Source: Raja brachyura
Taxonomy: Eukaryota
DNA length: 64,000 bases
Assembly (NCBI GenBank): GCA_963514005.1
Contig: OY740781.1
Location: 178,312,001-178,376,000, forward strand
Direction: 5' to 3'
Of the stretch, positions 1,293 through 61,525 are shown in pieces. Within the stretch, counting starts at the first letter, position 1, and each line of letters opens with the position of its first letter. The notes beneath the pieces were generated by a model. It had not been told where the DNA came from, ran no database searches, and was given only the letters and a program-made list of their open reading frames with translations. The position numbers and the translations under genes are program-made.

Positions 1293-2327
1293 TAGGTATG
1301 TTACAAAACGTACCTTCAGTTCTATCACTGGCCGTGTGCGCGACTTTGGCGCCTTTGGGGGGGGGGGGGGGGGGTTAAAATGCGGTTTTCCCTTGCCATC
1401 CGGAATTATATTTTCTCGGAGTGCGAGCTTTTGCTAAAGATTCGTTCCGACTGCCGGTAAGTGAAATTATTTTTTTAAATCGCCCGACTATTTCAGTGCT
1501 GGAGTAAAATAAAAATTAGCTTCTAATGCCGTGAACGCCGACAACGGGGACGGATTTTAGGTAGGGGACAGGTAAAGGTAAGCTGTTTATTCTTTCATAT
1601 AAACTTGCATGTTTAGACGACCTTAATCAACATTTCATGTTGCATAACAGTGATTTATTCCCCATACAAACCAGCAGTATTTTTCCTGCCGATATGGGGT
1701 TTAAATTCACTGCAACCGCAACGTTCCAATCCATTGCGTTCCATAAAATCCAACTCGCAAGCTGATTTAAATGGCCATTAATTTATGGGCATTAAACACT
1801 AAATTCCTTCAATTTGGCCTATAAATTCATAACAATGAGATTTGACATCATTTTATATTGTGAATTCTTGTGTGAATGTTATTTGGACACTTAGGCTTTT
1901 TAAAAAATGTTATTATTTTCTTAAGAAATGGATAGATGTTTAGATCTAGTAATTGAATTTTGTAATTAGCTACAATTGGGTAACCAACTAATTATATGCT
2001 TTAATTTCAGGTAATCCAAGTCAGAGTGCTTCATATTTGTTTCAGAATGCTTCAATCTACAATAACTGTAAATTTCTTTTAGTTCTCTTAATTTTTAAGA
2101 AAGTTATGGGCTTTTGACTGTCCTCGATCACAACTTTTGTGTTAAATCAATGGAAAAGCAATAGGGAACAAGATGCTAATTACTGAGTATGAAAATGTCC
2201 ATAACCTGTTTAATACTGAAGATATGAAAGTGAATTAGGCGTCAAATTAAACTTCTTTCTATGCTTTATCTGATGGGATAAATTGCAGACTTGAATTTTT
2301 AAATCTCAAAATGTTGTAACATTGCTA
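1293..2327. mobile_element. Non-autonomous DNA transposon (hAT-like, 7-bp TSD) inserted in the gypsy RT
   Basis: Imperfect TIRs TAGgtATGTTACAA / TAGcaATGTTACAA. TSD cattcag (1286-1292) / catttag (2328-2334). Removing it restores the RT reading YALLNVDCKSQQYL. Confidence 0.8.
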
Positions 2328-3625: not shown

Positions 3626-3727
3626 CAGTCTGAAGAAGGGTTTCGGCCCGAAACCTTGCCTATCTCCTCAGCGGGTGCAGTAGATGCTGCTGCACCCGCT
3701 GAGTTTCTCCAGCACTTTGTGTACCCT
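3626..3727 (+). mobile_element. Penelope-like element 3' tail with hammerhead-like motif, inserted in gag
   Basis: CTGAAGA-AGGGT-TTCG-GCCC-GAAA followed by the ...GATGCTGC...CTCCAGCA tail seen in other copies here. Confidence 0.65.
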
Positions 3728-9652: not shown

Positions 9653-9749
9653 CTAGATGTCACGGCCGTAGCAGGTGTCTGCAGGGGGAGGTGGGGGTTT
9701 GCATTGGGGTTCTCCAGGTAAAATTGGCTTTTGGTTGCAATTCTTGCAG
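9653..9749 (-). CDS. JCHAIN: JCHAIN exon 4, coding part
   Basis: ttttgttgcag| CKNC..QC..DTCY; TAG at 9655-9653. Confidence 0.9.
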
Positions 9750-12700: not shown

Positions 12701-15700
12701 GTCCACATCAGATATTTGGTATTTAGCTAAAGAATACCAAAGCTGATCAGAGTTGAGGATCAGCATGTTCCGGCAAGGAGAAGGGAGAAGGATGGCAAAG
12801 TAAGAGAATCTTGGGTGGTAAGAGAGGTTGTCAATGAGTAAAAGGAAACATATGTAAGGTTCAGGAAGATGTAATCAGACAGGGCCTTCGGGGAATATAG
12901 AGCAAGCAGGAAATAACTCAAGCAAGGAATCAGAATGGTTGTTAGGGGTTGTGTTATGGTCTGAGTCTGACTGATGTATTGATTACCACCTTTTTGTGAT
13001 AACGAATCGATGGACCACAGCACATAATTGCCCACAGTCTCCAATAATTAGTCTTTTCATTTTTTCAACCATGTGGATACATTCACATTTGAAAATGCAT
13101 TTACTTACACAATGTGTATATCTCTCATGAGCTGCTCCACGCCTCCACTATTAGGCAATGCAGACATTTTGGATGTGACAGTCATGCATTTACATTGTGA
13201 TTTAACTAGAAGGTGACTTTCCGCATCAGCTGTAAGAAAATAGACGTGGTTATTAGCTTTCTGAATCAGTAGCACTTATTATAAGTGTGGAAGTTACAAT
13301 GTCCAGGTGCAAATTGAATGTATCTGTTCATTGGCTTACGAGTACAGAAAAAACTATAAGTAAAGACAAGATAAGATACCGTTTATTGTCGTTTGAACCT
13401 AAGTTCAAACAAAATTTCGTTTCTGCCGTCATACGAACAAGAAAAAAACCAAGACACAATTAACACAATTTACACAGACATCCATCACAGTGAATCTCCA
13501 AACACCTCTTCACTGTGATGGAAGGCAAAGTCTTGTCTCTCTCCTGTTCTTTATTCTTCTCCCCGATGTTTGTATGTATGAATGTAAAGATAAGATATAG
13601 AAACAAAGAACTGCACGTGTTGGTTTATGCCAAAGATAAGCATTTCTCCAGCATCTCTGGAGAAATAGGATGAAACAACAGTCTGAAGAAGGTGCGCTGG
13701 GGTTGGCACTGGCTGGCAAGAGGAGATGATGGGAAAGGAAAATCAGATGAGCAGAATTCTAGATGATGGTAAACACCATCCCTGAATGCCCAGACCTCAT
13801 CAGCGTAGTTTAATGAGAAATCAGTTTTTGCAACATGTATTACAGATATCAGAACTATCTACTACAGGTGTCACTGTGCAAAATAACATATCTTGATTTA
13901 TTCAGAAAATAATAACTTTATTCAAGTCTTTGTTACAAATGGTAAATTGCTCTATATGACCCATGAGTAAAACCATTTAAAGATTCTCTGAAAGAGAAAA
14001 TGTTTATTAAAATGTTAAGAACAAGGAAAAAGAAGTCGGCCTTACGTACCCTTGTGCCTCTGTTGTTTGTTAAGATCATTGTCGTTCTTTCCCCCCAACA
14101 TTGTTTTCTTGTACCAAGCTCATTATCTTAGTATCTAGAAATCTATTGCTCTCTGTGACTCTCTTCCACAAATTCCTTGGATAGAGAATTCCTAACAGTA
14201 ATTATCTCCAGAGTGATTTTTTTTGTTGTCATCTGAGACCTGAATGGTCAAACCTTATTTAGCCTCCCCAGTCAAGGGAAATAATTCCTCAATCTATCCT
14301 GTCAAGTCTCATAAAGATTTCATATGTATCAATGAGATGACCTGTTATTCTCATTAATCTAAGAGATTGATGTAAGAGAGCCTGGTCCCAATCTGTTTCA
14401 TCAAACCTCGTACAACACAACCTCTCTCGTTAGAATCAGCCTGGTGAACCTTTGTTGCATTTTCTGTATGGCGAATCTACCCTTCCCAAATTAGGCAGGT
14501 ATGTACAGCCTCAGGAAGCCTAGATAATTGTTTTAAGCCATTTGTATTTTTGTACTCAAATCCTCTTGCAATAAAAGCCAACATAGCTCATTACATGTTG
14601 TGCCTCCATGCTATCTTTCAATAATTCATGTAAATGGATACTCAGATTCCTCTAACAATTACATCATTCAATCTTTAATTACTTAAAAAGACTCTGGCTT
14701 TCAATTTTTTCTACCAAAGTGTACAAATGTACATGTTGCCACAATCAGTTCTTGCCTGTTTTCCTGAAGCCTCTGCATCCGCATCACAACCAACATTGGT
14801 ATCTAGCAATGTAGCAAGTACGAATGTGGAGATTTTACATGATATCCAAATGGACATAGAATGTGAACAGTAGTTGCTCAGTCACTCTCTTTCACAGATC
14901 TCTGTAACTTCTGGCAGATGAGTGCTGGCCTTCCCAGTGACACCAACATGCCATAAACATTCATCACAAACAAGGGGACCGGAACATTATCTAAGCTGAC
15001 GGATTTGTGGTTATCTGGTTTACCTCACCTAAAATAATGTGGTGATAGCAGAGCTCTGAAAAATTATATCAATTATTTTATAATACTTAATTCTTTTAAA
15101 AATCCTATACCAAAAATCATCATGCCTTGAAGATTTATTTACAAAAAATCCATTATGTTTTTCCTTTACCTTTTAACATTTACATTTATTATATTTTTCC
15201 TTGATTTGCGTTTTGTTTTGTGTTGTTGATATTTTATTTGGATATAATTATATTTGGATATATTTTATCTGGATATAAAATATTAAATTCAAATGTGCTC
15301 CGTTCACTTAGTGTTCAATACAATCTCACTGGTATCTTTAACATATAGATTTTCCCTCTTATTGTTATTTTTCTAAATGCATTTATATTAAAAATTAGAT
15401 TTTTGGTTTTAACTTTGATGATGCTTGCAATTATTTTTCATGTTCTTGTATGTACTCCTGATGTAGCTCTGAGCAAAGATGTGGTTATCTTATTCAAAAT
15501 TAGTATTATAATGGCTGGCATTAGAAACGTAAATGTCTCTTTTTTGGCAGAGAGTATGCGTTTGGCACCGGGCTCAACTCGCATAGGGTTGAGGTAGAGG
15601 GTGGTTATATCAGTAGTCAAGTAATAAATGCAAGAACATGAAAAAAAATTGAAAGTATGATCAAAGTTAACAAATTTATATACATTAGTTCGTTTGAATT

Positions 15701-17009
15701 AAATCATGAAATAATGTATTTTGGAGTCTTTGAAATATAGTAGAGTTTTTGGAAACATAACAGTTTTTAAATTTGCTTTATGTGTGATTTTAAAATTTGT
15801 AATCATTTGTGAATCTGACAATTTATTTATACATTTATATGCTACAATTGCGTTTTACTATTCTGTCAGAATTTTAAATCTTTTCATTAATTTTTTTAGT
15901 TTTTTTCTGTTCTATTTATCTCAAAAAGTCTTAATTAATTGTCAAGGAGGCCCAATATAGCAGTGACCTATCAGCTTGGGTATGGGTATCAATATGGAAT
16001 GCTTTAGGACCTGTTATGACACTTTGCTTAAATAACTAAATGGAGATAAAGAATCCTAGCCCCTCAATTGATGAGGTGGTAACATTCCCTTTCTTTTGGT
16101 TAATGTGTTATGGATTGACACTGGAACTACCGGTAATCTGTAGTTAATTTATGGTGAGTAGAAACTAAAACCTCTGCAGCAGAAACTCATTTCAAATGGT
16201 TGCTCAAGTTTGGGAGGAATTACATAATGAGTAACTTTTATTTTAAATAGTCAAGATATGCCATGAAATGCACATTCATGGCCACAGGGAATACACAGCA
16301 AGAACAATGTTATCATTCATAAATCAATGGGACCGCTGCATGCTGAGGTGATCATATTCATCTGCAAAGAGACTGCATGAGCAGACGATGTTTAAAGATA
16401 TAGCATGGAAACAGGCCCTTCAGCCTTCCATGCTGACTATCAATATATTGACTATCACATGTTCTATGTTATCCCACTTTCTCATCCACTCTCTACACAT
16501 CAGGGACAAGTTACAGAGGCAAATTAACCTACAAACCCGCACGTCTTTGGAATGTGGGGGAAAACCAGAACACCGAGTGGAAATCCGAGCAATCACAGAA
16601 AGAACATGCAAACACCACACAGACAGCACCCAAGGTCAGGATCGAACCCGGGTCTCTGGTATTGTGAGGCAGCAGCTCTACCAGCTGCACCACTGTGCCA
16701 CTCTGAAGTACTGTCCACAAATCAATTTACAACCAGTCTAATCGATGATTTCTGCACATGCTTGTACCAATGTCTCCACAATCAATCAACTCATTGTTGT
16801 TGTTTCTCGTTATTTAGGAAGAAAATGTCTTCATTATTATTTTGTTTTTGTACTTTTGAGGTTTCTATTGCTAAGAAAACATGAAACATTTACTCATCAC
16901 ATTATCACATTGCACAATGAAAAATGTAATCATTAAACGCCACACCTGCTGCAAGAATTGTGAAAAGCAGAATTGCTGCAAAAGGCTTCAGCATTTGTTT
17001 GTTCTTCAT
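9653..17009 (-). CDS. JCHAIN: Immunoglobulin J chain gene, 4 coding exons, 120 aa, C-terminally short
   Basis: Spliced product MKNKQMLKPFAAILLFTILAA-ADAESHLLVKSQCKCMTVTSKMSALPNSGGVEQLMRDIHIV-VPTRSRENISDPTSPIRNKFVYKISDF-CKNCNQKPILPGEPQCKPPPPPADTCYGRDI*. GT/AG introns with phases 1,2,2. Hallmark CKC and RENISDPTSP motifs. Confidence 0.95.
9886..10797 (-). mobile_element. CR1 LINE 3' part in JCHAIN intron 3
   Basis: ORFs 10456-10779 and 9974-10357 are CR1 RT; (ATATGGTT)n tail; same subfamily as 46205-47447. Confidence 0.92.
11596..11676 (-). CDS. JCHAIN: JCHAIN exon 3 (81 nt)
   Basis: ttattgcag| VPTRSRENISDPTSPIRNKFVYKISDF |gtatga; conserved NIS glycosylation site. Confidence 0.97.
11776..12960 (+). 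mobile_element. Old CR1 endonuclease-region fragment with a younger CR1 3' piece nested at about 12040-12548 (JCHAIN intron 2)
   Basis: Decayed VVI..F.FPNIDW..LLDL motifs flank a CR1 3' end with (TTTCTATG)n. Confidence 0.8.
13109..13229 (-). CDS. JCHAIN: JCHAIN exon 2 (121 nt)
   Basis: ttttcttacag| .. LLVKSQCKCMTVTSKM..RDIHIV |gtaagt; compare human IVLVDNKCKCARITSR..RNIRII. Confidence 0.95.
14010..14890 (-). mobile_element. Ancient CR1 fragment (JCHAIN intron 1)
   Basis: Highly diverged match to the CR1 RT 3' region seen elsewhere in the window. Confidence 0.6.
16395..16700 (-). mobile_element. tRNA-derived SINE (V-SINE/HE1-like)
   Basis: Reverse GGCACAGTGGTGCAGC A box, GGGTTCGATCC B box, TTCCAAAGACGTGC core. 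Confidence 0.85.
16946..17009 (-). CDS. JCHAIN: JCHAIN exon 1 (signal peptide, 64 nt, phase 1)
   Basis: ATG AAG AAC.. hydrophobic core, ends GCA G|GTGTGG. The donor is weak but size and phase fit. Confidence 0.8.
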
Positions 17010-18383: not shown

Positions 18384-18894
18384 CATGATGGTATGGTTTC
18401 AGTGAGATCACAAATGCCTTCTCTGAGCGTTGTGAAATGCTGCAAATGCAGATTCCCCTCTGAATGATAAAGTCACACCAACCAAAAAGTCAAAAATTCC
18501 CCACCATCAAATTTGTTTATTTTTATCTTTATTATGCCGCAGTGATTTATAATCGTTACCAGTAGAGACCAGCTGCAGAATTGTGAGGCTGCATTTCAGC
18601 GAGCTGGTGACCTTCATTTTGACCAAAGGCAACAGATACACTTGCGTGAGGTAGATCTTGGCGACTTCAGAGATCACCCTTGTATGTGTGGACTTGCCTG
18701 GTGTGAGGATATCCTGCGTGATAGGTTGATAAAAGAAGACCTTCAAAACCAGGGATGGATAATGTGTTGGAATACCCATGCTTTTCTCAAATAGTTTCTC
18801 ATTGCTCATTTCTCAGCTGATGAACATGAAACTACTCGTGTGTTTGCATAAATTATCGGTGTTTCTGAACTAGCTCATGAAATTATCGGTGTTT

Positions 18895-20100
18895 CAGCAC
18901 TACCCCTCCCACTTCGACAACAGAGACACCTTCGTGAAAATGCTGTTCATCGACTTTAGCTCAGCATTTAACACCATTTTCCCCTCCAAATTGATCACTA
19001 AGCTCATCGACCTGGGCATTGACCCCTCCCTCTGCAACTGGATACTGGACTTTCTAACCACCAAACCCCAGTCTGTTAGGTTAGACAACCACACTTCTTC
19101 AACCCTCACCCTGAACACCGGCGTTCCACAGGGCTGTGTGCTGAGCCCTCTCCTCTACTCCCTCTTTACCTATGACTGCGCACCTGCACATGGTACTAAC
19201 ACCATCATCAAGTATGCAGATGATACAACGGTGATTGCCCTCATCAGCGACAATGATGAGTCGGCCTAAAGGGAGGAGGTCCAGCTCCTAGCAGCATGAT
19301 GCGCTGACAACAACCTGGCCCTTAACACCAAGAAGACCAAGGAGCTCATTGTGGACTACAGAAGGTCTAGGGGTGGCACGCACACCCCCATCCATATTAA
19401 TGGTTAAGGAGGTGGAACGTGTTTCCAGCTTCTGGTTTCTGGGGGTCAACATCTCTGATGTCCTCTCTTGGACCCACAATACCTCAACACTGGTCAAGAA
19501 GGCTCACCAGCGTCTCTTCTTCCTGAGGAGACTAAAGAAGGTCCATCTGTCTCCTCAGATTCTGGTGAACTTCTACCGCTGCGCCATCGAGAGCATCCTT
19601 ACCAACTGCATCACAGTATGGTATGGCAACTGCTCTGTCTCCGACCGGAAAGCACTGCAGAGGGTGGTGAAAACTGCCCAACGCATCACCGGTTCCTCAC
19701 TCCCCTCCATTGAGTCTATCCAGAGCAAGCGATGTCTGCGAAGGGCACGCAGCATCGTCAAGGACTGGTCTCGCCCCAACCACAGACTGTTTACCCTCCC
19801 CCCATCTGGGAGACGCTACAGGTCCCTCCGTTCCCAGACCAGCAGGTTCAGGAGAAGCTTCTTCCCTGCGGTTGTTACAATACTTAACTTTGCACCTCAG
19901 TGATTGCCAATCACCCCCCCCCCCCCCCCCCCCCCCCCGAAAAGTGCACTACTGCTGTTGTATATACATATATATATTACTGTTCCATTAATCTGTGTTC
20001 GCACTCCTGGGTGAGATGCTAACTGCATTTCGTTGTCTCTGTACTTGTACACTGCACAATGGCAATAAAGTTTGAATCTTTGAATCTGAATCTGAATCTG
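18895..20100 (+). mobile_element. Rex1/Babar LINE, 5'-truncated
   Basis: [36 protein letters not shown]; (TGAATC)n tail. Confidence 0.93.
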
Positions 20101-25947: not shown

Positions 25948-28900
25948 TGCCTGTACATGATCTATATCCCCCACTTCCTGTATATCCATGTGCCTATCCA
26001 AAAAACACTTAAATTACTCTTTAGTTTAGTTTAGTGATACAGGGCGGAAACAAGCCCTTCGGCCCACCGAGTCCGCACCGACCAGCGATCCCCGTGCATT
26101 AATGCTATCCTACACACACTAGGGATAATTTACATTTATACCAAGCCAATTAACCTCCAAACCTGTACATTTTTGGAGTGTGCGAAGAAAACGAAGATCT
26201 CAGAGAAAGCCCACGTGGTCACGGGGAGAACATACAAACTCCATACAGATAGCACCCGTAGATCAAACCCAGGTCTCCAACACTGTAATAGGTGTGAGGC
26301 AGCAACTCTACTGCTGAACCACCATGCCGCACAGTAATATTTAGTTCAGTTTAGTTTATTGTCATGTGTACTGAGGTACAGTGAAAAGCTTTTTGTTGCA
26401 CGCTATCCAGTCTGTGGAAAAACAATACATGATTACAATCGAGCTGTGTACAGTGTACAAATACAGGATAAAGGGAATAACATTTAATGCAAGATAAAGT
26501 CCGGTAAAGTCCGGCTAAAGATAGTCTGTGTTTCTCCAATGAGGTAGATGGTAGGTCAGGGCAGCTCTCCAGTTGGTGATTGGAAGGTTCAATTGGCTGA
26601 TAACAGCTGTGAAGAAACTGTCCCTGAATCTAGAAGTATGCATTTTCACACTTCTGTACCCTTTCCCTGATGGGAGAAGAGGGAATGTCTGGTGTGAGAC
26701 TCGTCCTTAATTATGTTGGTGGTTTTGCCAAGGCAGCATGAAATTTAGACGGAGTCAATGGAATAGATGTTGGATTCTGTGATGGTCTGGGCTGCGATCA
26801 CCAATTAAGAACTTATTAAGCGGAGCACTAATTGCACGCAGATATAAACATTGATAGATGAACAGATTAAGATATTGCTCCAGTGAACCAAACTGTGTGG
26901 ATCCAGGAGTAACGAACCAGCCTAATGTATGCAAAGTAAATGGGGCCGGGATTACAGCTAATTCCATGCTTTCTCCACTTAATTACGTGGAATAATATAG
27001 GACCAACTCACAAATATGTTTTCGGTTTTTTCCAGATAGTAGCGCTGAGTGAACTAAGGAGCCGAGTGCTGATAATTACTGAAAGACTGCAAATTCCTGA
27101 GAGGACAGTAATGTTCAATGTACAGTCTGCTTTGATGCAAGATTTGACAATGGAACACAAATAAACATATTAAAGATGGAGATAAACTCATGAGAAGCGA
27201 TGGCTCATGAATACAGGTTGTGAAATGTTGTGCAACAACCTGTTCTAATTGTGTTGTGAAATCAAAAACAGTTTGAGTGCTAACTCATGGGGTCACCACC
27301 ACAATTTGTACTCTATCATTGGTGAACGAGGGCAGGGACATTATATTGAGCAGAATTCTCACAATTTAAAAACATTCAGTAATACTTAAAGGGAATTGTG
27401 ATACAAAGAAAACATTTTATCAGATGGATCACAGCTTGGTTTGGGAACAGCTCCATCCAAGACCGCAAGAAATGCAACCAATTGTGGATGCAGCTCAGAC
27501 CATCACACAATCCATCCTTCCTTCCATTGACTCCATTTATACCTCACGCTGCCTCGGCAAAGCCAGCAGCATAATCAAGGATGAGTTGCACCCTGGCCAC
27601 TCCCTCAAAGGGCTGAATGGCCTATTCCTGCACCTATTTTCTATGTTTCTATGCTTGAGTATATGGCAATAAAACTCGACCACTTGATTTTGAAGCATTC
27701 ATGCATGGTGGAGGTATAATGTAGTCGTAGAGTGATGCAGTGTGAAACCCCTCCAACACCCTCCCCCCCATTCAGTCGCTCCACTCCCTCGCCGGGTACC
27801 CCGCAAGGCCAGTGATCTGTGATCATTCAGCCCCCCCCCACTTTCAAAAGCGCTCCGTGGTCCCTGCTACACTATCTTGGGAATATCTCATCACATGGTG
27901 GATCAAGGATCGTTAGAGGTGGAAATAAATGCTGGCCTTTGCTTGTTCTTGGATAATTTACATTACATTAATAAGGGACATTATATTGAGCATAATTCTC
28001 ACAATTTAAAAACATTCAGTAATACTTAAAGGGAATTGTGATTACAAGAAAACATTTTATCAGATGGATCACAGCTTGGTTTGGGAACAGCTCCATCCAA
28101 GACCGCAAGAAATTGCAGCCAATTATGGACAGAGCCCAGCTCAGACCATCACACAATCCATCCTTCCCTCTATTGACTCCATTTATACCTCACGCTGCCA
28201 TGGCAAGGCCAGCAGCATAATCAAGGACAAGTTGCACCCTGGTCACTCCCTCTTATCCCCTCTTTGATCAGGCAAAAGGTATAGAACTGTAAAAACGCAC
28301 ACCTCCAGATTTAGGGACAGTTTCTTCCCAGTTGGTATCAGGCAACTGAATCAACCTACCACAACCAGAGATCACTGCTGAACTACTATCTACCTCATTG
28401 GTGACCCTTGGACTATCCTTGATCGGGCTTTGCTGGCTTCACCTTGCACTAAACATTATTAACTTGTCATGTACCTATACACTGTAAATGGCTCAATTGC
28501 AATCATGTTTCATCTTCCTCCTGACTGGATAGCACGCAACAAAAGCTTTTCACTTTACCTCGGTAAATGTGACACTCCACTATCTTGGGAATATCTCCAT
28601 CACACAGTGGATCAAGGGTAGTTAGAGGTGGAAATAAATGTTGGCCTTTGCTTGGTTGAGATCTTAGATAATTTAACAAAAAGAGTTGCTGAGGGTCGTA
28701 TGATTGATGTATAGATGGACGTTCACAGAGCTGACAGAGACACGATAGGACAAGCGGCCTTTTCAGTGCACCATCACTGTATCATTATTAACAGCATTGT
28801 GTCTCTGGCGACACGGACAATCAGTTTGTACGTATATTTAACGCGATGATAAGGCACAGAGTTGGGTGAAAGGTTGGTTTGTTAGTCTACATGGAAACAT

Positions 28901-30133
28901 ATAATAGTGTAAACTGTGGGAGGGACAAGAATCAGAGACAGGCTGGTGAAGTGAGCAGACAAATGGTGAGTGAAATCCCATGGACCGAAATGTGAAGAGA
29001 AATATTTGAGTATGAAGAGGGGCAACATTCTGTGTTGGTAGTGACATTACAGTAGGAGGCAGGACTGAAGGAGGGAACACACAAGTCTCTGGCAGGGCAA
29101 GTTTGGAATGGTGCACAAGGGTAGATGGTATCCTTGGATTTATACATTAGTTATATTGAGAAATTGCAGAATCAGTAGTAAGAAAGGCAAATGCAATGTT
29201 ACATTTATTTCAAGAGGACTGGAATACAAAAACAGGGATGCAATGCTGAGGCTTTATAAAGCACTGGTCAGACTGCCCTTGGATTATTGTGAACAGTTTT
29301 GGGCCGCATATCTGAAGAAAGATGTGCTGGTGTTGGGGAGGGTCCAGAGGAGGTTCACGAGAATTGACCTATCTCTCCGCCTCAACCCCATTCTCCTGCC
29401 TTCTACCCATAAACCCTGACATGCACACTAATCAAGAATCTATCTATGTCTGCCTTAAACATATCCATTGACCTGGCCTCCACAGCCTACTGTGGCAATT
29501 AATTTCACAGATTCACTACCCTCTGACTAAAGAAATTCCTCCTTATCTACTTCCTAAAGAAACGTCATTTTATTCTGAGGCTATGACCCCTGGTCCTAGA
29601 TGCTTCTGGTTAGAATCATCGATCACTACTCCCCTCCATCCCACAGATGCTGGGAGTTCCTTCAGCAGATAATTTATTGCAAAATAAAAATATGTTTGAC
29701 AGTTTTAGCATGCAGTTTGCAGATGCCACTTCAGTAGGTGGTATTGTGGACAGTGAAGACATTTGTCAAGGATTGCAGTGGGATCTTGATCAGCTGGGCC
29801 AGTGGGCTGAGGAATAGCTGATGGAGTTTGGTGCAGGTGGGTGAGGGGTGTTTTGGGATTTTGGGAGGTCGGGTTGAGATGGGACCTTCATGTTGTATGT
29901 GGGCCCTGGGGCCGTGGTGGAGTAAGGGATGTAGGGGTGCTGGTGCATGGTTCGCTGGAGGTTGTGTCATAGGTGGGTAGGATGATGGAGAGGGCTTATT
30001 CTACATTGGCCCTTGGCGTTCAGGGTATTTAGTGTGGAGTTTGGAAAGTTCTGTTGCAGTTGTACAGGATGTTGGTGGGGCCACATTTGGAGCGCTGTGT
30101 TCAGTCTTGGTCACAGAGGTGTCATTGGGCTGG
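25948..30133 (+). repeat. Segmental duplication block A (composite of SINE, Rex1 and CR1 fragments and unique DNA)
   Basis: Colinear high-identity match to 41937-45385. Contains an internal duplication (about 27334-27960 vs 27973-28670). Confidence 0.92.
26020..26330 (-). mobile_element. tRNA-derived SINE; duplicated at about 42010-42310
   Basis: Reverse complement of the SINE at 18069. Confidence 0.8.
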
Positions 30134-31221: not shown

Positions 31222-33597
31222 AGCACAGCGGAGCTGAGGGGCGGTGGACTAGCGGAGCTGCAGAGCGGCGGACCAGCGAAGCACCCACAGACGGCGACGA
31301 GAACGCAAGCGTCGCCGAGGATGCCGAGGTGGGTTGAAGGCTAGGTTAGAACAAGCCCCACACAGGCCATCGATTCCTAGCCTTTTCCTCGCCAACGTAC
31401 GATCACTGGCAAACCAAATGGATGAACTCCGGCTACTGATCACCTCCCACAACTGGATCAAAGACTGCAGCATCCTGATCTTCACTGAAACCTGGCTCAA
31501 CACCGATGTTCCTGACAGCGCCATCGAGCTAACGGGGCGTCTTATACTCCGAGCGGACAGAACACAAGACTCCGGTAAGACCAGAGGTAGGGGGTCTGTG
31601 TATTTATGTAAATAAAGCATGGTGCACGGACACCACCATCATCGAGAGTCACTGCTCAGCTAACATAGAGTTCCTCTTGGTTAAATGCAGACCGTTCTAT
31701 CTGCCCAGAGAATTTACCTCCACTGTTCGATGCTCGAGCCTACAGTTCATCCAGGGCTAACCTGAAGAGGGGCATCAAGAAGGCCAAGCACAGCTACAAG
31801 CTTAGGATCGAGGAGCACTTCAACAACAACTCCGACCCCCGACGCATGTGGCAAGGCATCCAAGCCATCATGGACTTCAAACCCACCAACACCACCCCCA
31901 CATCCAGCGACTCATCCTTCCTTGAGGAGCTTAACCACTTTTATGGCTGTTTTGACAGGGACAAGCAAGAGATGGCCATCAAGGCTCTGCTCCCTGCTGA
32001 TCACCAGCCCCTCACACTCACCCCCTACAACGTGTATCTAGCACTGAGTAGGAATAATGCACGTAAAGCTGCTGGCCCTGACGGCATCCCCGGGCGCGTC
32101 CTCAGGACCTGTGCTGCACAGCTGACAGACGTCTGGACTGACATCTTCAGTCTTTAACTTGCCCAAGTAGTTGTCCCCACGTGCCTTAAAACCAACTCCA
32201 TCGTGCCGGTGCCAAAACACTCCACTGCGGCGAGCCCCAACGACTTCCGCCCAGTTGCACTTACCCCCATCATCACCAAGTGCTTCGAGAGGCTGGTCCT
32301 GGCACACCTCAAAGGCTGCCTACCTCCCACACTGGACCCCTATCAGTTTGCCTACCGCAAGAACAGGAGTATGGAGGATGCGATCTCAACGGCACTTCAC
32401 TCCCCCCTCTCCCACCTCGACAACAGAGACACCTACGTGAGAATGCTGTTCATCGACTATAGCTCAGCATTTAACACCATTATCCCCTCAAAATTGATCA
32501 CCAAACTCAGCGACCTGGGAATCAACCCCTCCCTCTGCAACTGGATACTGGACTTTCTAACCAACAGACCACAGTCTGTCAGGTTGGACAACCACACCTC
32601 TTCAACCCTCACCCTGAACACCGGTGTTCCACAGGGCTGTGTGCTGAGCCCCCTCCTCTACTCCCTCTTCACCTATGACTGCACACCTGTACATGGTTCT
32701 AACACCATCATCAAGTATGCAGATGATACAATGGTGATTGGCCTCATCAGCGACAACGATGAGTTGGCCTATAAGGAGGAGGCTCAGCTCCTAACAGCAT
32801 GGTGCGCTGACAACAACCTGGCCCTTAACTCCAAGAAGACCAAGGAGCTCATTGTGGACTATAGAAGGTCTAGGGGCTGCACGCACACCCCCATCCATAT
32901 TAATGGGATGGAGGTGGAACGTGTTTCCAGTTTCAGGTTTCTGGGGGTTAACATCTCTGCTGACCTCTCTTGGACCCACAATACCTCAACACTGGACAAG
33001 AAGGCTCACCAGCGTCTCTTCTTCCTGAGGAGACTAAAGAAGGTCTATCTGTCTCCTCAGATTCTGGTGAACTTCCACCACTGCGCCATCGAGAGCATCC
33101 TTACCAACTGCATCACAGTTTGGTATGGCAACTGCTTTGTCTCTGACCGGAAAGCACTGCAGAGGGTGGTGAAAACTGCCCAATGCATCACCGGTTCCTC
33201 ACTCCCCTCCATTGAGTCTGTCCAGAGCAAGCGATGTCTGCGAAGGGCGCGCAGCATCGTCAAGGACTGGTCTCACCCCAACCACAGACTGTTTACCCTC
33301 CTCCCATCCGGAAGCGCTACAGGTCCCTCCGTTGCCGGACCAGCAGGTTCAGGAACAGCTTCTTCACTGCGGCTGTTACAATACTTAACTTTGCACCTCA
33401 GTGATTGCCAATCACCCCCCCCCCCCCGGGACACTCCTTCCCCCAGCATAATTGCTGATACTGTTTGTACATATATATATTTTACCGTTCATTATTCTAA
33501 ATTCGTTCTTCTGGGGAGATGCTAACTGCATTTCATTGTCTCTGTACTGTACACTGCACAATGACAATTAAAGATTGAATTGAAATTGAATTGAATA
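31222..33597 (+). mobile_element. Rex1/Babar LINE with internal deletion
   Basis: APE motifs (LANVRSL, IFTETWL) at 31334-31730; 440-aa RT ORF 32203-33525; (TTGAA)n tail. Confidence 0.95.
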
Positions 33598-35440: not shown

Positions 35441-36616
35441 GACTGTTGACAGTAGTTAACTACAAGTGCTAACAGTAGTAGTTAACGAATCTTTTTTGTC
35501 TGATAGCCGGTGTTTGCAGTGCTTTTTATCCATGTTCGTTTAAAAAAAAAAATCTGTATTTAACAAGGCAAATGTACTTTTTTCATCCGTGAAATACGGA
35601 AAGTTAGCGCAGGGCCCCCCTTAGGGAGCAATCGGCTTAAGACCGGCCCTGTGTCAGAGGCACATTTGTCCTACACTTTCCTTCATCTCGGCCATGCCCT
35701 CTTATTGCTGCTACTGTCAGGCAGGAGGTCCAGAAGCCTGAAGTCCCGCAACACCAGGTTCAGGAATAGTTACTCTCTTATATCGTCAGGTTCTTCAACT
35801 GACCTGAACAACTCTAATCCTACCTCGGCAACACAATAAAGACCACTTCTCACACTACCTTGGACTTGTGAGGGGATAAGATAGAATAGAGCAAAACAGA
35901 GGATAAACGTAGTCACGCAGAAGATGTTACAAATGTTTAACACATTTTACCACAGTGGGTGGTGTGGATAGGTTTCTCACAACATTATAGAAGCTTCTGG
36001 ATGAGCACTTGTATTGCCAATGCATAGAAGGTTACAGACAAAGTACTAGTAAATGGCATTGATATAGATGCGTACTGGATATCATGGACATGGTATGCTG
36101 CTTTACCCGTTTCTGTCGAAGATAGACACAAAATGCTGGAGTTGCAAAATGCATTGGGTCAGGCAGCAATTCTGGAGAAAAGAATAGGTGATGTTTCGGG
36201 TCAAGACCCATTTTCAGACTCATTCAGCCTATTTCTGTGTTCTTTACCTCTATAAATCTAAATGACTTAACTTAGCTTTGGTGTTCCGTATCATTCTCCC
36301 TGTGTCTCTTTAAAATGATGACCAGGATGCGATTATTGGATTCAAAGCAGTTTATTAACATAACTTGAACGCACACAATTTCTCATACATATAATATAGC
36401 AAGCTCTCTACAGACACATTTCTTGCTGTGGCATTATATTTAGGAACAGACAAATACATTTTAGAATGCCATTTATTTGATGCTTAAATCATATCAGAGA
36501 TACAATCCTTTTTATTTAGAATTAAAATCAGTTCACCATAAAAACGTTTGTATGTATAAAACCTGTTTCATCACCTCAGGATACCATTGTGGCAATGAAG
36601 CCCTTCAAAATGTATC

Positions 36617-36713
36617 CTACTCTTCAGTTTTGTTAAGTAAGTCCATAATAAACGGCTTCACCCAGGGACTCTTCCCACTCAAACAAACTTCCATTTTTGG
36701 TTTCAGATGAACT
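36617..36713 (-). CDS. CXC chemokine exon 3
   Basis: ttttctttcag| VHLKPKMEVCLSGKSPWVK..*; AATAAA downstream at 36477-36472 and 36356-36351. Confidence 0.9.
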
Positions 36714-37624
36714 CTGAAAGAAAAAGGGAAACACTTTATCTTTCTAGTTATTAGATTTTTTGGAGGGGGTTGGGGGGGATAAATTGCAACATCATTTAAT
36801 TAAAAAATGTTTGTCAGAGTTCTCTTGTTTGTTCATTTCACTTGTGGCAGATGATCTGCAGATAAAAATGTAATTCATACAATTTCTCCACATTATCATG
36901 AATCTCACCCATTGAAATATAAACATGAACATTTAAATGCATGAACAATTCTTACATGACTTCCGAGTATTGGCACCCTTTGCCCCCCGGTGTAGATTTC
37001 AATTTTATAAATACGATCCTTGGACGTGGAATTTGTTTCATACTCCGAGCACCTACATCGTGATCCTTCATTGTTATTTATATGAGCCGCTGTAAAACAA
37101 ATGACATGTTGTAAAAATATATTCCTTAAAATTAGTTTAATTACTTTCAATGTTCACAATGTGGCCACTTCTTTGGCCTTCTGCACTGTTATAACAAGGC
37201 CTATTCTAAGACCAAGGAAGGACACATCAAGTTCCACATGGACACATAGTAACCTGCAAGACTGAACATCAAATAGAACAACCTGGAAAACACACACACT
37301 GTCTGTGAATCAGAACCTGCCAAACCCCCTCAGGATTCTATGTCTCAGTGTGATCACCGCTCATTTTTTAAGTTACAATGAGTACAGACCCACCCGCTTC
37401 AACCATTTCTTATAAGACAATCCATATTTAATATTATGCAAGTGAACATTCGGCGAACTGTCTTCAATAGTTCATTCAACTGGCTGAATGAATCAAAAAT
37501 CTAATAACAATTATAAAGCTTAAAGACTATAATTGACAGGATCTAGGGTATTTTCCTCACCCATAGCCAAAGCTGCACAAATTCCAAGCAGCAGCAGGAG
37601 TGTAACACTAACACTGTACTTCAT
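36617..37624 (-). CDS. CXC chemokine (non-ELR, CXCL13/CXCL8-like), 3 coding exons; +1 G frameshift in exon 2 as assembled
   Basis: Removing one G from the run at 36983-36988 gives 97 aa: MKYSVSVTLLLLLGICAALAMAAHINNNEGSRCRCSEYETNSTSKDRIYKIEIYTGGKGCQYSEVIVHLKPKMEVCLSGKSPWVKPFIMDLLNKTEE. Spacing C-x-C-x24-C-x15-C; exons 64/133/97; phases 1,2. Confidence 0.9.
36956..37089 (-). CDS. CXC chemokine exon 2 (134 nt as assembled, 133 expected)
   Basis: ttgttttacag| ..RCRC..IEIY..GCQYSEVI |gtaaga. Confidence 0.88.
37561..37624 (-). CDS. CXC chemokine exon 1 (signal peptide, 64 nt)
   Basis: MKYSVSVTLLLLLGICAALAM G|gtgagg. Confidence 0.9.
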
Positions 37625-37698
37625 TGTCAGATTCCAGTCTTCTCGAGCCTTGCCTTTCTGATTCAGTTGGTTTTTCTTGGTGCCTTCTAATTCCTCTC

Positions 37699-37732
37699 TA
37701 TTTATATTCTGAATAACTAGGGGTTGTGCAAT
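37699..37732 (-). promoter_or_regulatory. Chemokine core promoter: TATA box and C/EBP-like site
   Basis: TATAAATA at 37706-37699, about 75 nt before the ATG; ATTGCACAA at 37732-37724. Confidence 0.65.
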
Positions 37733-37946: not shown

Positions 37947-39903
37947 TCTCTATACCTCTATAAGTCTTATCTTGTGTGTGTGTGTGTGTTGTATTTTCGC
38001 CAAAACACTACGATGTAGTGCTTAAATTTTGACTCACATTTTCCCCTCCATGCAGTGAGCAGGTTCACTTAAGATTTGTTGCTATATTTGTTGATTAAAG
38101 TTTAAAAAAAAAGACAAAACTGCCTTTTAAACCGACTTTCACACACAGATTCTTCAACCAGCTTCGACTGATGATGTCACAATGAGGTGGGTGGGCACGA
38201 TGGCTTGGGTCTGCGCCCGTTTCACTCACAGAATATTCCACCAGCTTCGAGTGACGTTGGGGGTGGGCCGCATTTCCAGAACATTCCTCAAACGCTTCAC
38301 CACCTCCCCAACGGTCGAGTGAAGATCCAGTTCTGCACTGCTTCATTCTCACTGCTTGATGCACTGATTGATTCTGACTTTGCGATCTTTAAAGATAAGA
38401 TCCCTATTTTGTTCTAATTCTTTGAATAATACTTCGCGATTTTTAAAACATTTATTGAAAAAAAATTAACGGTGGTTTTATTCAGATAGTTTCCACTGTT
38501 GTTAAAAGACCTCATGATTTTTCTCTTGATTGTTCTGATTCTTTGAATAACACTTCATGATTTTTAAGACATTTATTTCATTTGGAAAAAAAATGATTAA
38601 TGTTGGTTTTATTCCAATCGTTTTCACTGTTGCTTGAATACTACCGGGGGGGGGGGGGGGGGGGGGGGGGGCATTTCGAGAACATTCTTAAAACTACTCA
38701 AAAGACCGCGATGTTTCATTTGATTGTACTAATTCTTGTTGGTTTTATTCCGATCGTTGGTTTTATTCTGAACATTCCCGCTGTTGCTGTTGATTGAATT
38801 TGCACTTTAAAGATAACATTTATTTTAAAAGACTTCACAATTTTAAAATTGATTCTACTAATTAATTTTTAAAAAAACTTTGCGAATGGCCGCAGGCTGC
38901 TGATTGATTGATGCCCAATTGGTCCGGTTCCCCACGTAGGGGGAGCACAGCTCAACACCCGATTGGTCACTGTTCCAAGCTGCTGATTGATTGAGGGGAT
39001 CAACTGCCAAATCTTTAAAGATAACATTTCTTAAGATTTATTTCATTCCGCAGGAAAGACTCCATTTTAATCAAATTATTCCGTGTTCATCAGGTTATTT
39101 TAAACAAAAGACGCATTTTTCATATACAGTTGGAATTAAAAATAAATTTCATCGTGATTGATTTCATTCCACAGGAAAGACTCCATTTTAATCAAAGGAA
39201 TCTGTTCATTAACAATTGAGATTGTGTTTGTTTTTTTTAAAATCATGCCAAGAAGAGGGAGGAAAAGAGGTGCAGGATTGTCATAGAATGACAAAAGGAG
39301 ACAGCGAGAAGTAGTAAGGAGCAACAGGGAACTCAACGTCTCAGAGGTAATCAAGAGTGAGCGGGGAGAAGGGCACAAGAGACACAGCAAGAAACCACTC
39401 AACATCTCAGAGATAATCGAGAGAGAATATGGGAGAGAAGGGGCGCAAGAGACGCAGCAAGAAACAACTCAACGTCTCAGAGATAATCGAGGGAGAGAGC
39501 GGGAGAGAAGGGCACAAGAGACGCAACAAGAAACAACTCAATATCTTGAGAAACAACGAGAAAGAATACAAAGGGGAAGGGATGAAGAGACACGAGAAAG
39601 AGCCACAACAAGAAAGAACAACTGAATAAATATCATCGTTCACGCTTAAATTGTTGTTATATTTTAAGGGTTATTCACATTTTAAGCTTTAATAAATCAC
39701 TTTTCCACTTGCTGTGATCGTCTGCTATGCCTTCAGCCACGCCTGCACAGTAATGTCACACCTGCACAGTCTATGTCACAATGGGAACCCGTCAGCCGCG
39801 CCTGCACCATTGGGAGCTATGGGTGAGTGGTGGAATATTGCGTTTGGGGACCAGCCCTCCCGCGTGTCGCTGTCCCCGCTGCATTGGGTCCCACTTGGTC
39901 TAG
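37947..39903 (+). mobile_element. Internally deleted Helitron
   Basis: A|TC 5' end and CTAG|T 3' end, no TSD, splits a CR1-like tail. Residual ORF start MPRRGRKRG with 23-aa STPR-like repeats (39246-39620). Confidence 0.8.
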
Positions 39904-41499: not shown

Positions 41500-41940
41500 G
41501 TAATAAATAAGTTTATAACTACAATTCTAGTACAAAATACAAAACACTCAAGTCCTTAGTGCAACTAAAACAGTTATTTAAATAAACAATCATGTACGTT
41601 ACTATGGATTGTGTGATCCCTCTAAGTAGCATTGATGGGGAAAATCTGATGTATTTTCTATTTGGGCTGAGATGTGTGAGCTGTTTTGGTTCCAATGTTG
41701 AGATCCATTGGTGGGATCCACATGTCAGCGTTGCAGACCGATCCATATACTGATTGCTTGATCAAACATCACACACAGTCTGTGGATGCACATTGAGAAG
41801 ATGCTTTCATAAAATGGAGTCCTGTGTACTTCCCGTCAGACATTTGTCCTGTTGAAGCATGTTGTGTGAGTGTCATTGGCAGTGCCAGCCTTTATGTACC
41901 ACTCGATTCATGGGTATCCTTTGGAATTTAGGATGGTGCC
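41500..41940 (+). repeat. Duplication block C (empty-site copy)
   Basis: Recurs in pieces at 46118-46204, 47448-47555, 52240-52280 and 53190-53390. Confidence 0.85.
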
Positions 41941-44900
41941 TGTACATAATCTGAACAGGCACCATCCTGTATATCCATGTGCCTATCCCAAAACCACTTA
42001 AAATACTCTTTAGTTTAGTGATAAAGCGTGGAAACAGGCCCTTCAGCTCACCGAGTCCACACCGACCCCGCGCATTAATGCTATCCTACGGATATTATCT
42101 AGGGATAATTTACATTTATACCAAGCCAATTAACCTACAAACCTGTACATCTTTGGAGTGTGGGAATAAACCGAAGATCTTGGAGAAAGCCCACGTGGTC
42201 ACGGGGAGAACATACAAACTCCATACATTTAGCACCCGTAGATCAAACCCCGGTCTCCAACACTGTAATAGGTGCGAGGCAGCAACTCTACTGCTGCACC
42301 ATCATGCCGCTCAGTAATATTTAGTTTAGTCTAGTTTATTGTCATGTGTACTGAGGAACAGTGAAAAGCTTTTTGTTGCACGCTATCCAGTCTGTGGAAA
42401 AACAATACATGATTACAATCGAGCTGTGCACAGTGTACAAATACAGGATAAAGGGAATAACATTTAATGCAAGATAAAGCCCGGTAAAGTCCGGCTAAAG
42501 ATAGTCTGTAGTTCTCCGATGAGGTTGATGGTAGGTCAGGGCAGCTCTCCAGTTGGCGATTGGAAGGTTCAATTGGCTGATAACAGCTGGGAAGAAACTG
42601 TCCCTGAATCTAGAAGTATGCATATTCACACTTCTGTACCCTTTCCCTGATGGGAGAAGAGGGAATGTCTGGAGTGAGACTCGTTCTTAATTATGACAGT
42701 GGCTTTGTCAAGGCAGGATGAAATTTAGATAGGGTCAATGGAATAGATGTTGGATTCTGTGATGGTCTGGGCTGCGATCACCAATTAAGAACTTATTAAG
42801 CGGAGCACTAATTGCACGCAGATATAAACATTGATAGATGAACAGATTAAGATATTGCTCCAGTGAAGCAAACTGTGTGGATCCAGGAGTAACCAACCAG
42901 CCTAATGTATGCAAAGTAAATGGGGCCGGGATTACAGCCAATTCCATGCTCTTTCTCCACTTAAATATGTAGAATAATATCGAATCAACAAAAATTTTTT
43001 GGGTTTTTCCAAATAGTAATGCTGAGTGCTGATAATTACTGAAAGACTGCAAATTCCTGAGAGGACAGTACTTTTCAATGTACAGTCTGCTTTGATGCAA
43101 GATTTGACAATGGAACACAAATAAACATATTAAAGATGGAGGTAAACTCATGAGAAGCGATGGCCCATGAATACAGGTTGTGAAATGTTGTGCAACAACC
43201 CGTTCTAATTGTGTTGTGAAATCAAAAACAGTTTGAGTGCTAACTCATGGGGTCACCACCACAATTTGTACTCTATCATTGGTGAACGAGGGCAGGGACA
43301 TTATATTGAGCAGAATTCTCACAATTTAAAAACATTCAGTAATACTTAAAGGGAATTGTGATAACAAGAAAACATTTTATCAGATGGATCACAGCTTGGT
43401 TTGGGAACAGCTCCATCCAAGACCGCAAGAAATTGCAGCCAATTGTGGACAGAGCCCAGCTCAGACCATCATACAATCCATCCTTCCTTCCATTGACTCC
43501 ATTTATACCTCACGCTGCCTCGGCAAAGCCAGCAGCATAATCACGGACGAGTTGCACCCTGGCCACTCCCTCGAAGGGCTGAATGGCCTATTCCTGCACC
43601 TATTTTCTATGTTTCTATGCTTGAGTATATGGCAATAAAACTCGACCACTTGATTTTGAAGCATTCATGCATGGTGGAGGTATAATGTAGTCATAGAGTG
43701 ATGCAGTGTGAAACCCCTCCAACACCCTCCCCCCCCATTCAGTCGCTCCACTCCCTCGCCGGGTACCCCCCCCCCCCCCCCCCCAAGGCCAGTGATCTGT
43801 GATCATTCACCCCCCCCCCCCCCCTTTCAAAAGCGCTCCGTGGTCCCTGCTACACTATCTTGGGAATATCTCATCACATGGTGGATCAAGGATAGTTAGA
43901 GGTGGAAATAAATGTTGGCCTTTGCTTGTTTGAGATCTTGGATAATTTACCAAAAAGAGTTGCTGAGGGTTGTATGATTGATGTATAGATGGACGTTCAC
44001 AGAGCTGACAGACACACGATAGGACAAGCTGCCTTTTCAGTGCACCATCACTGCATCATTATTAACAGCATTGTGTCTCTGGCGACACGGACAATCAATT
44101 TGTATGTGAATTTAACGCGATGACAAGGCACAGAGTTGGGTGATAGGTTGGTTTGTTAGTCTACATGGAAACATATAATAGTGTAAACTGTGGGAGGGAC
44201 AAGAATCAGAGACAGGCTGGTGAAGTGAGCAGACACATGGTGAGTGAAATCTCATGGACCGAAATGTGAAGATAAATATTTGAGTATGAAGAGGGGCAAC
44301 ATACTGTAACTGGTGTAGTGACATTACAGTAGGAGGCAGATCCAAACGAGGGATCACACAAGTCTCTGGCAGGGCAAGTTTGGAATGGTGCACAAGGGTA
44401 GATGGTATCCTTGGATTTATACGTTAGTTATATTGAGAAATTGGAGAATCAGTAGGAAGAAAGGCAAATGCAATGTTAACATTTATTTCAAGAGGACTAG
44501 AATACAAAATCAGGGATGCAATGCTGAGGCTTTATAAAGCACTGGTCAGACTGCCTTTGGATTATTGTGAACAATTTTGGGCCGTATATCTGAAGAAGGA
44601 TGTGCTCATGTGGAGAGGGTCCAGAGGAGGTTCACGAGAATTGGCCTATCTCTCCCCCTCAACCACATTCTCCTGCCGTGTCCCCATAACCCCTGCTGCA
44701 CACTAATCAATAATCTATCTATGTCTGCCTTAAACATATCCATTGACCTGGCCTCCACAGCCTTCTGTGGCAATGAATTTCACAGATTCACCACCCACTG
44801 ACTAAAGAAATTCCTCCTTATCTACTTCCTAAAGAAGCATCATTTTATTCTGACGCTATGACCCCTGGTCCTAGACGCTACTGGTTAGAATCGTCGATCA

Positions 44901-45385
44901 CTACTCCCCTCCATCCCACAGATGCTGGGAGTTCCTTCAGCAGATAATTTATTGCAAAATAAAAATATGTTTGACAGTTTTAGCGTGCAGTTTGCAGATG
45001 ACACTAAAGTAGGTGGTATTGTGGACAGTGAAGATGGTTGTCAAGGATTGCAGTGGTATCTTGATCAACTGGGCGAATGGCCTGAGGAATAGCTGATGGA
45101 GTTTGGTGCAGGTGGGCGAGGGGTGTTTTGGGAGGTCGGGTTGAGATAGGACCTTCATGGTGTATGTGGGCCCTTGGCCGTGGTGGAGTAAGGGATGTAG
45201 GGGTGCAGGTATATGGTTCCCTGGAGTTTGTGTCATAGGTGGGCAGAATGATGGAGAGGGCTTGTTCTACATTGGCCCTTGAAATTCAGGGTATTTAGTG
45301 TGGAGTTTGGAAAGTTGTGTTGCAGTTGTACAGGACGTTGGTGGGGCTGTGTTCAGTCTTGGTCACATGGATGTCATTGGGCTGG
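41937..45385 (+). repeat. Segmental duplication block A'
   Basis: Copy of 25948-30133 lacking one unit of the internal duplication. Confidence 0.92.
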
Positions 45386-52280: not shown

Positions 52281-53189
52281 TGTCTGTCTCCTTGTGTGTC
52301 TTGTGTGGGGGGGTAAGGGGGAAACCGCTTTGGTCGCCTCCTCCACAGAGAGGCGACTTTTTCCATGTCACCGCCCCTGTGGCCTAACAGCAAGGATCGG
52401 GCGGCCTTTCCCAGAGACGTGCCGGGGCTCCAGCAGCGGGCGCAGCGCAGACTCTCGGCGCGGAGCGGGCGAGCCCTCGCCGGAGGGGAGCGCTCCATTT
52501 CGCTGGCCCACGGCAGCCGGCAGCCCGAGAGTCCGCGCTGCGCCCGTCGCTGAAGCTCCGGCACGTCTCCAGGAAAGGCCGCCCGATCCTCGCTGTTAGG
52601 CCACGGGGGCGGCGACATGGAAAAAGTCGCCTCTCCGTGGAGGAGGCGACCGAAGCGGTTTCCCCCTCGTGGGGGACCCGGGGGAAGAAGAGCTCCAACT
52701 GCCGGCCCGAGGCCTGCTTCTACCGCGGGGGTGGAGGGGACTTACTTACCATCAGGAGCGGGGTCCCTCGCCAGGGATCCCTGGAGAGGAGCTCCAGACC
52801 GCCGGCCCTGCAGTGTGCGGTCCTTCTGGCTGCGGCGCGAACTTTAAATCTCTGACCGCCGGCCTGCGGCCTACACCAGCCTGAAGCCGCGGTCTCCGGT
52901 GGGGAGGCACCGATTCAGGACTTACCTGGACTTTTTACCTTGTCTGCATATCTGGACGCCCGCAGCGACGGCTGTGGAGGGTTGAGGTCCCGACCACGGG
53001 GGAAAATGGAGGAGGACTGGCCAATTTTTGTGCCTTCCACCACAGTGATGAATGGTGCGGTGGATGTTTGTGTTACATTTTTTATGTGTATTGTGTGTTC
53101 TTTATCATTGTACCGCTGCTGGCAAATTAATTTCACTTGCACTTTATGTGCAATGTGACAAATAAAACCGTATTGTATTGTATTGTATT
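52281..53189 (+). mobile_element. GC-rich non-autonomous retroposon with a long internal inverted repeat
   Basis: TSD gatcc (52276-52280 / 53190-53194); empty site at about 41740; AATAAA plus (GTATT)n tail; arms 52317-52458 and 52525-52666. Confidence 0.85.
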
Positions 53190-60563: not shown

Positions 60564-60961
60564 AGGCAACACAGCTTTAGCATTTCCAAACCAAAGGCAA
60601 CACAGCTTCAGCATTTCCAAACCAAAGGCAACACAGCTTTAGCATTTCCAAACCAAAGGCAACACAGCTTCAGCATTTCCAAACCAAAGGCAACACAGCT
60701 TTAGCATTTCCAAACCAAAGGCAACACAGCTTCAGCATTTCCAAACCAAAGGCAACACAGCTTTAGCATTTCCAAACCAAAGGCAACACAGCTTCAGCAT
60801 TTCCAAACCAAAGGCAACACAGCTTTAACATTTCCAAACCAAAGGCAACACAGCTTTAGCAATTCCAAACCAAAGGCAACACAGCTTTAACATTTCCAAA
60901 CCAAAGGCAACACAGCTTCAGCATTTCAAAACCAAAGGCAACACAGCTTTGCATTTACAAA
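60564..60961 (+). repeat. 31-bp minisatellite, about 13 copies
   Basis: Unit aggcaacacagctt(t/c)agcatttccaaaccaa. Confidence 0.96.
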
Positions 60962-61525
60962 CTATGTTTTCAAACCACATTAAGGGCACTGACAGGTCAG
61001 TAAAACCACTCATAGTTTAGTAGACATGTGTTCAGTGCTATTCACAGCTCAGACTGAGAGATGTGACCCTCTCGCTCCCCCATCTTGCAGAGACTGACTG
61101 AGGCACTCAACAGTTCTGGGTTTTATAGTCCCTCCGGAAGGGGCCTTCAGGAGAGAGAATCTCAACATTTGTTAAACACTCTTTTATTTTTCATCGATGG
61201 GAAAAATCCTCTTGTCCTGCGCAGCGGTGGGGGACTCTGAATAAGATGGCCAAAAATCACAACTGTAAGTGGCAGCATTTTTTCTAAAATCAATATAAAG
61301 AACAACAAGAAGTGGTCAAGATCAGACTTTTAGTAATATAGTTGAGAAGAATATATCGGGTAGATGCACATAGTCTCGTTAGTCCAGAATTGGGGAATTG
61401 AGAACCAGAGGACATAGGTTCAAGATGAAGGGGAAAAGATTCAATAGGAATCTGAGGGGTAAGTTTTTCACACAAAGGGTGGTGGGTGTATGGAACAAGC
61501 TGCCAGAGGAGGTAGTTGAGGCTAC

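Follow-up and report, generated by a model that had tools for sequence, protein, structure and literature searches.

The 64,000-nucleotide window analysed here (Raja brachyura, contig OY740781.1) contains a chemokine gene whose reading frame is shifted by one surplus base, which raises the question of whether the gene is broken in the animal or only in the assembly, and of which chemokine it is. The gene itself is a genuine three-exon CXC chemokine gene on the minus strand of the window (36617-37732), and the intact TATA box, splice sites and polyadenylation signals of the original prediction were all located on that strand. The TATA box (TATAAATA, 37706-37699) implies a 5' UTR of ~50 nt, compared with a mean of 49 nt for CXCL genes (PMC10801876 Dataset S1). 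The start ATG at 37624 has an A at -3 and opens a hydrophobic exon 1 (coding part 37624-37561, 64 nt; putative signal peptide) that ends at the donor GTGAGG; the residues A-x-A precede the junction with exon 2, where the signal peptide would be cleaved. After a phase-1 intron of 471 nt, exon 2 (37089-36956; 134 nt as assembled, 133 expected) carries the CXC codons at nt 33 (37057-37049) and the Cys3 codon (36975-36973), and ends at the donor GTAAGA. A phase-2 intron of 242 nt leads to the terminal exon 3 (36713-36617; 97 nt, or 94 nt plus the stop), which contains Cys4 (36685-36683) and a WV motif. Three AATAAA signals follow (starts at 36516, 36477 and 36356; span 36351-36516), the first of them 100 nt past the stop, and one ATTTA lies between the stop and the last signal.

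Several measures indicate how far this structure departs from chance. The four splice sites used fall at the 94.6-99.9th percentile among all minus-strand GT/AG dinucleotides when ranked with a rough consensus matrix. The paired exon-2 and exon-3 pattern, which was defined after the gene had been seen, occurs once in the window and in none of 200 resampled windows, while the single exon patterns are present in 18 and 70 of the 200. Pfam IL8 is the sole family match for each exon piece, at adjacent profile positions (1-34 and 38-57 of 60); the pieces were scored separately and reach 13.4 and 13.1 bits, each below the curated cut-off of 21.3, and exon 2 in the as-assembled frame has no Pfam match. 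A PDB search with exon 3 returned four weak matches to CC chemokines, none significant (the best being CCL20, E 0.057, with CCL3 at E 1.3), and the same search with exon 2 returned none; an Rfam search gave no matches. Upstream, a putative C/EBP-like site (37723-37732, minus strand) lies 17 nt from the TATA box; its pattern, picked after viewing the sequence, has 5 matches in the window against 2.3 expected. An NF-kB-like pattern matches once in the window and nowhere near the chemokine gene. Five acceptor candidates for a fourth exon (36560-30000) were considered, none of them compelling, and a four-exon structure with phases 1-2-2 was rejected, since exon 3 has no GT at nt 80 or 84 and the one phase-2 candidate close to the stop, at 93 nt, is a weak site at the 83rd percentile.

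Read through with an X at the break, the frame yields a protein of 97 amino acids with cysteines at 33, 35, 60 and 76, that is, the spacing of 1, 24 and 15 residues (C-x-C-x24-C-x15-C) that had been claimed for the gene with one base dropped. The triplet GSR immediately precedes CXC, and both the WV of exon 3 and a Glu four residues past Cys3, which we take from CXCL8 numbering to be the conserved position, are present. Two sequons occur, NST at 41 and NKT at 93; the former had been singled out as unusual for an N-loop, and stays so, while the latter had been overlooked. The mature read-through chemokine has 11 basic and 10 acidic residues and a pI of 7.9. As assembled, the frame instead encodes 92 amino acids, keeps the CXC pair, loses Cys3 and Cys4, and terminates at a premature stop in the last exon (36635-36633), with the ending that had been described.

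A run of six G lies at exactly 36983-36988, as reported, and there is one +1 frameshift, but the claim that the extra base is a G goes too far, since 71 different positions between 37049 and 36976 can each lose a base to reopen the frame with correct cysteine spacing. Nine adjacent positions (36990-36982) yield a protein identical to the G-removed version, and removal at 36995, 36994, 36993 or 36991 keeps six G and places Pro instead of Thr five residues before Cys3. Many CXC chemokines carry Pro at this point, for which no support as a conserved residue was found in the literature. Within the formal bounds of 37049-36976, the interval most likely to hold the lesion is 36976-37000, because the frame upstream of it keeps a chemokine-like strand pattern. 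Among a number of equivalent or alternative sites the six-G run is the simplest, given that bases are added more easily in long runs, and the surplus base may be a G; this comparison draws on few events, as repeats within the window show 1-bp indels in 1 of 8 runs of at least six, in 0 of 14 runs of five and in 4 of 3385 single bases, too few to fix the rate in long runs.

That exon 2 is one base too long is also evident from comparison with tabulated genes. Dataset S1 of PMC10801876 lists 125 chondrichthyan cxcl rows, a few alternative transcripts included; setting aside six pseudogene or frameshifted rows without exon data leaves 119 (44 from cluster A and 75 from cluster B). Exon-2 length equals 1 mod 3 in all 119 of these (PMC10801876 Dataset S1), and the distance from the first base of CXC to the end of exon 2 is 100 nt in 111 of them (PMC10801876 Dataset S1), compared with 101 nt in the skate gene as assembled and 100 with one base fewer. 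The chemokine gene contains no second lesion. In a simulation using assumed neutral rates, the probability of finding none was 0.57 at 1% neutral divergence, 0.20 at 3%, 0.06 at 5% and 0.002 at 10%. Any real break is therefore young, and most of the divergence of the protein predates the loss of the frame. Both options originally put forward, an assembly error and a recent null allele, are retained.

The identity of the gene is informed by its neighbour, which the original prediction missed. A complete JCHAIN lies on the minus strand (9653-17009 of the window), with 19.6 kb separating the chemokine stop from its ATG downstream; an exon of it was first found by a scan with short motifs. It comprises exon 1 (16946-17009, 64 nt), exon 2 (13109-13229, 121 nt, carrying CXC; Pfam Ig_J_chain, E 5e-4), exon 3 (11596-11676, 81 nt; Ig_J_chain, E 2e-9, above the cut-off) and exon 4 (9653-9749, 94 nt plus stop), the last in the short form found in skates (94 nt in thorny and little skate, 256 in sawfish; PMC10801876 datasets). 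Exon 2 has a two-residue deletion (121 nt versus 127 in thorny and little skate). The encoded protein of 120 amino acids has a mature pI of 8.6 and the short skate C-terminus; its identity with the J chain of Amblyraja radiata is 90%, compared with 86% for Raja eglanteria, 78% for Pristis and 77% for Mobula. Chondrichthyan jchain sits downstream of the CXCL8-like cluster A (PMC10801876), and an exon 1 of 64 nt is found in 41 of 44 cluster-A rows and in none of the 75 cluster-B rows (PMC10801876 Dataset S1). The linkage to JCHAIN and the 64-nt exon 1 therefore place the skate gene in cluster A without waiting for the phylogenetic tree that had been suggested.

The exon structure agrees with this placement. 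A stop in exon 3, originally held to be unusual, is known in 5 of the 119 rows: three coding exons occur in 5 of 44 cluster-A rows, all batoid, and in none of the 75 cluster-B rows (PMC10801876 Dataset S1). The combination of a 64-nt exon 1, a 133-nt exon 2 and CXC at nt 33 is found in only 3 of the 119 rows, all three-exon batoid cluster-A genes, one of them from little skate and two from sawfish, the sawfish pair lying immediately upstream of jchain (PMC10801876 Dataset S1); the gene described here has exons of 64/133(+1)/94 and CXC at 33. It is likely a divergent skate paralogue within the CXCL8-like cluster A, occupying the jchain-proximal slot, and on position and exon sizes it is probably the positional counterpart of sawfish LOC127586632. 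Since its triplet is GSR and not of the ELR type (ELR, SLR, DLR, NLR), it is a cluster-A paralogue and not a CXCL8 orthologue by the definition of PMC10801876.

The triplet is also the feature that could point elsewhere. An xLR-type triplet occurs in 40 of 44 cluster-A rows and xSR in none of them, whereas xSR is found in 12 of 75 cluster-B rows, and the CXCL13-like genes beside cnot6l typically combine xSR with 133/33 (PMC10801876 Dataset S1). It could accordingly be proposed that a CXCL13-like gene of cluster B was copied beside jchain, as the skate gene shares with that group (NSR, KSR, HSR, ISR) the xSR triplet, the exon 2 of 133 nt, CXC at 33 and the WV motif. In the tabulated xSR genes, however, exon 1 measures 61 nt and the exons number four (61/133/84/x); these genes belong to the other cluster, tens of Mb from jchain, and 64/133/33 with three exons is already known in batoid cluster A, so that an origin from cluster B appears very improbable. 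Genes of cluster B are expected beside cnot6l or tnip3, and a search of the window for CNOT6L motifs found none.

Within cluster A, the closest likenesses are to the sawfish (Pristis pectinata) genes LOC127586632 and LOC127587240, which share with the skate gene the 64-nt exon 1, the 133-nt exon 2, CXC at nt 33, intron phases 1-2, the stop in exon 3, the Glu and the WV (PMC10801876 Dataset S1). Going upstream from jchain, LOC127586632 is likewise the first cxcl and shares its strand, at a distance of 29 kb compared with 19.6 kb in the skate. Compared by tabulated features, the sawfish genes differ in having NIR instead of GSR and 106 instead of 94 coding nt in exon 3. The little skate genes LOC129704131 (64/133/88, DLR) and LOC129700298 and LOC129700427 (64/124/100, VKR) are also three-exon, non-ELR members of batoid cluster A, but they lie at least 379 kb from jchain and differ in their triplets and exon-3 lengths. 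More generally, the chondrichthyan CXCL8-like genes (SLR/NLR/DLR; 64/136/84/x) share the cluster, the 64-nt exon 1, the cysteine spacing, the Glu and the WV; they have four exons, xLR and a pI of 8.5-10.1, in contrast to the three exons, GSR, pI of 7.9 and N-loop sequon of the skate gene. Tabulated chondrichthyan cxcl genes with a pI value range from 8.48 to 11.19, the table giving none for the three-exon genes. The N-loop of the skate chemokine is polar as well as sequon-bearing, while that of CXCL8 carries hydrophobic anchors. The lack of ELR, which had been regarded as unusual, is the norm, ELR being found in none of the 119 rows (PMC10801876 Dataset S1), and passages of PMC6145007 and PMC2585555 likewise report that cartilaginous fish lack it; GSR itself, on the other hand, is also found in none of the 119 and stays unusual, as does the near-neutral pI.

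Departure from the standard structure is frequent at this position. The cxcl nearest jchain deviates from 64/136/84 in whale, zebra and white shark, catshark, sawfish and elephant shark, though not in bamboo shark (PMC10801876 Dataset S1), its form being 64/115/84/25 in whale and zebra shark, 64/127/72/43 in catshark, three exons in sawfish and a frameshifted pseudogene in white shark (PMC10801876 Dataset S1). These examples show that the gene adjoining jchain is the most variable of the cluster. Arithmetic on the published table puts the nearest cxcl upstream of jchain at 119-212 kb in thorny skate and 379 kb in little skate (PMC10801876), and the gene described here fills a batoid cluster-A slot that is empty in these two annotated skates.

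Searches of protein sets found no close relative. A word search with the read-through exon 2 among proteins of 77-2000 amino acids gave no candidate, and one with exon 3 among proteins of 33-105 amino acids gave none; exon 3 was also searched exhaustively against 1.84 billion representatives, where this 31-residue query of little power returned nothing at E up to 0.001. By comparison, a control word search with J-chain exon 2 recovered four batoid matches among seven candidates, down to 67% identity. The simulated probability of missing a relative with both exons was 0.35 at 60% identity, 0.06 at 70% and 0.002 at 80%, and therefore a sawfish orthologue could have escaped, while an annotated skate orthologue hardly could, in agreement with the distances tabulated for thorny and little skate. 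If the sawfish three-exon proteins are in the set searched, this simulation indicates that their identity to the skate protein is probably below about 70%. The set has no identical J-chain entry, so the species seems to be absent from it, and the blank chemokine searches are no proof of a missed annotation. No description of this skate chemokine gene was found in the literature searched.

With regard to whether the frame is truly broken, the sequence evidence leads us to lean towards a real and recent break, that is, a null allele or young pseudogene, over an assembly error. This reading is favoured because pseudogenes or frameshifted genes make up 6 of the 125 tabulated chondrichthyan cxcl rows, the white shark gene next to jchain among them (PMC10801876 Dataset S1), because the jchain-proximal slot has no listed cxcl in thorny and little skate, because the chemokine exon searches were blank while the comparable J-chain search found batoid J chains down to 67%, and because a 363-nt jchain coding sequence in the same window is without an indel. 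The window also has a gap of 149 N inside a low-complexity tract; although a single gap, it may hint at short-read scaffolding, and short reads seldom miscall runs of six bases. Against a real break, the sole lesion coincides with a homopolymer, and the promoter, splice sites and polyadenylation signals are all intact. The alternative is that the animal carries an intact gene, which would make the 97-residue divergent cluster-A chemokine, and that the extra base entered the G run through an error of the consensus. Homopolymers are a typical place for long-read errors, and the protein is far from its database relatives yet without a second lesion; within the window repeats, a long run is far more prone to a 1-bp indel than a single base is, on very few events. 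Long-read errors are described in PMC12007338 as a source of false frameshifts. The empty slot of the two annotated skates may itself be an annotation miss. The hint of short reads from a small sized gap, the known broken loci and the slot without a listed gene all weigh on the other side, so that a consensus error has an appreciable but lesser chance of being the explanation.

In either case the gene is a new, divergent member of a known immune gene cluster, and neither an error nor a real break would much surprise a specialist. Fish chemokine clusters often contain chemokine-like relics (PMC2416438). If the break is real, it represents one more birth-and-death event in this cluster; if it is an error, the protein sets lack a divergent chemokine of near-neutral charge that is likely glycosylated. 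An intact allele would encode a secreted chemokine of 75 residues, cleaved at the exon 1/2 junction and held by two disulfides. By analogy with non-ELR CXCL8-like proteins, it would likely attract leukocytes through CXCR1/2-type receptors; passages of PMC6145007 report that frog non-ELR CXCL8b attracts granulocytes through CXCR1/2, and passages of PMC3568907 that the elephant shark has two receptors of this type. The polar, likely glycosylated N-loop and the near-neutral charge would likely give it receptor and glycosaminoglycan binding unlike that of its paralogues. For the broken allele, the position of the stop in the last exon means that the mRNA would likely escape nonsense-mediated decay, yielding a mature product of 70 residues (pI 5.3, two cysteines) that, lacking strand 3, the helix and both disulfide partners, would not be expected to adopt a chemokine fold. 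Genes of the cluster come and go through duplication and loss, and the function is likely covered by paralogues.

A further proposal is that the shifted allele is functional, either because the acidic CXC-only peptide of 70 residues has a role or because splicing restores the frame. The stop in the last exon is compatible with this, and an AG at 36735 (in the interval 36735-36714) would add 20 nt, restore the exon-3 frame and give, by chance, a Cys 15 residues before Cys4. That AG, however, lacks a pyrimidine tract and ranks at the 5.5th percentile, compared with the 99.9th for the true acceptor, and an AG two bases into exon 3 by itself leaves the frame unrestored; rescue by splicing was rejected as weak on account of the poor acceptor. 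Twenty-six open codons in the shifted frame would arise by chance about one time in four (by simple arithmetic), and the original exon-3 frame is still cleanly that of a chemokine, so that the shifted frame shows no sign of selection. A functional shifted allele is thus highly unlikely. A precedent for it exists in the J chain, which arose from a CXCL gene, with CXC kept and the rest rewired (PMC10801876). It could be speculated, as a long shot, that a real and expressed shifted allele, secreted as an acidic CXC-only peptide of 70 residues, replays the exit of the J chain from the chemokine family, in which CXC was retained while the downstream cysteines disappeared and the charge fell. Were this so, chemokine change would recur at the jchain-proximal slot throughout cartilaginous fish, and the G run would act as a switch between two products.

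The chemokine gene is flanked by a pair of direct repeats on the plus strand, copy A (25948-30133, ~4 kb) lying 6.5 kb downstream of it and copy B (41937-45385) 4.3 kb upstream. The copies are 92-96% identical in three blocks, lie 15-16 kb apart and contain nested older repeats. Such flanking repeats could promote unequal crossing-over. They may be the remains of a tandem duplication of which the window lacks the second chemokine copy: motif, tblastn and blastn searches there found none, and extra pattern matches at 30024, 45290 and 52176 are not chemokine-like. The window otherwise consists mostly of retroelements. Decayed pieces of LTR retrotransposons with zinc knuckle and RT RNase H domains lie at 44-3667 on the minus strand, and young LINE copies at 31253-33525 and 18874-20077 are 91% identical, one of them with a frame of 455 codons and a reverse transcriptase domain. 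A GC-rich inverted repeat of ~350 nt (52316-52667, self-match 85%) is possibly a non-autonomous DNA element, and tandem arrays are found at 60564-60962 (31-nt unit, 12.9 copies, 94% matches) and at 39330-39581 (~70-nt unit, 3.5 copies).
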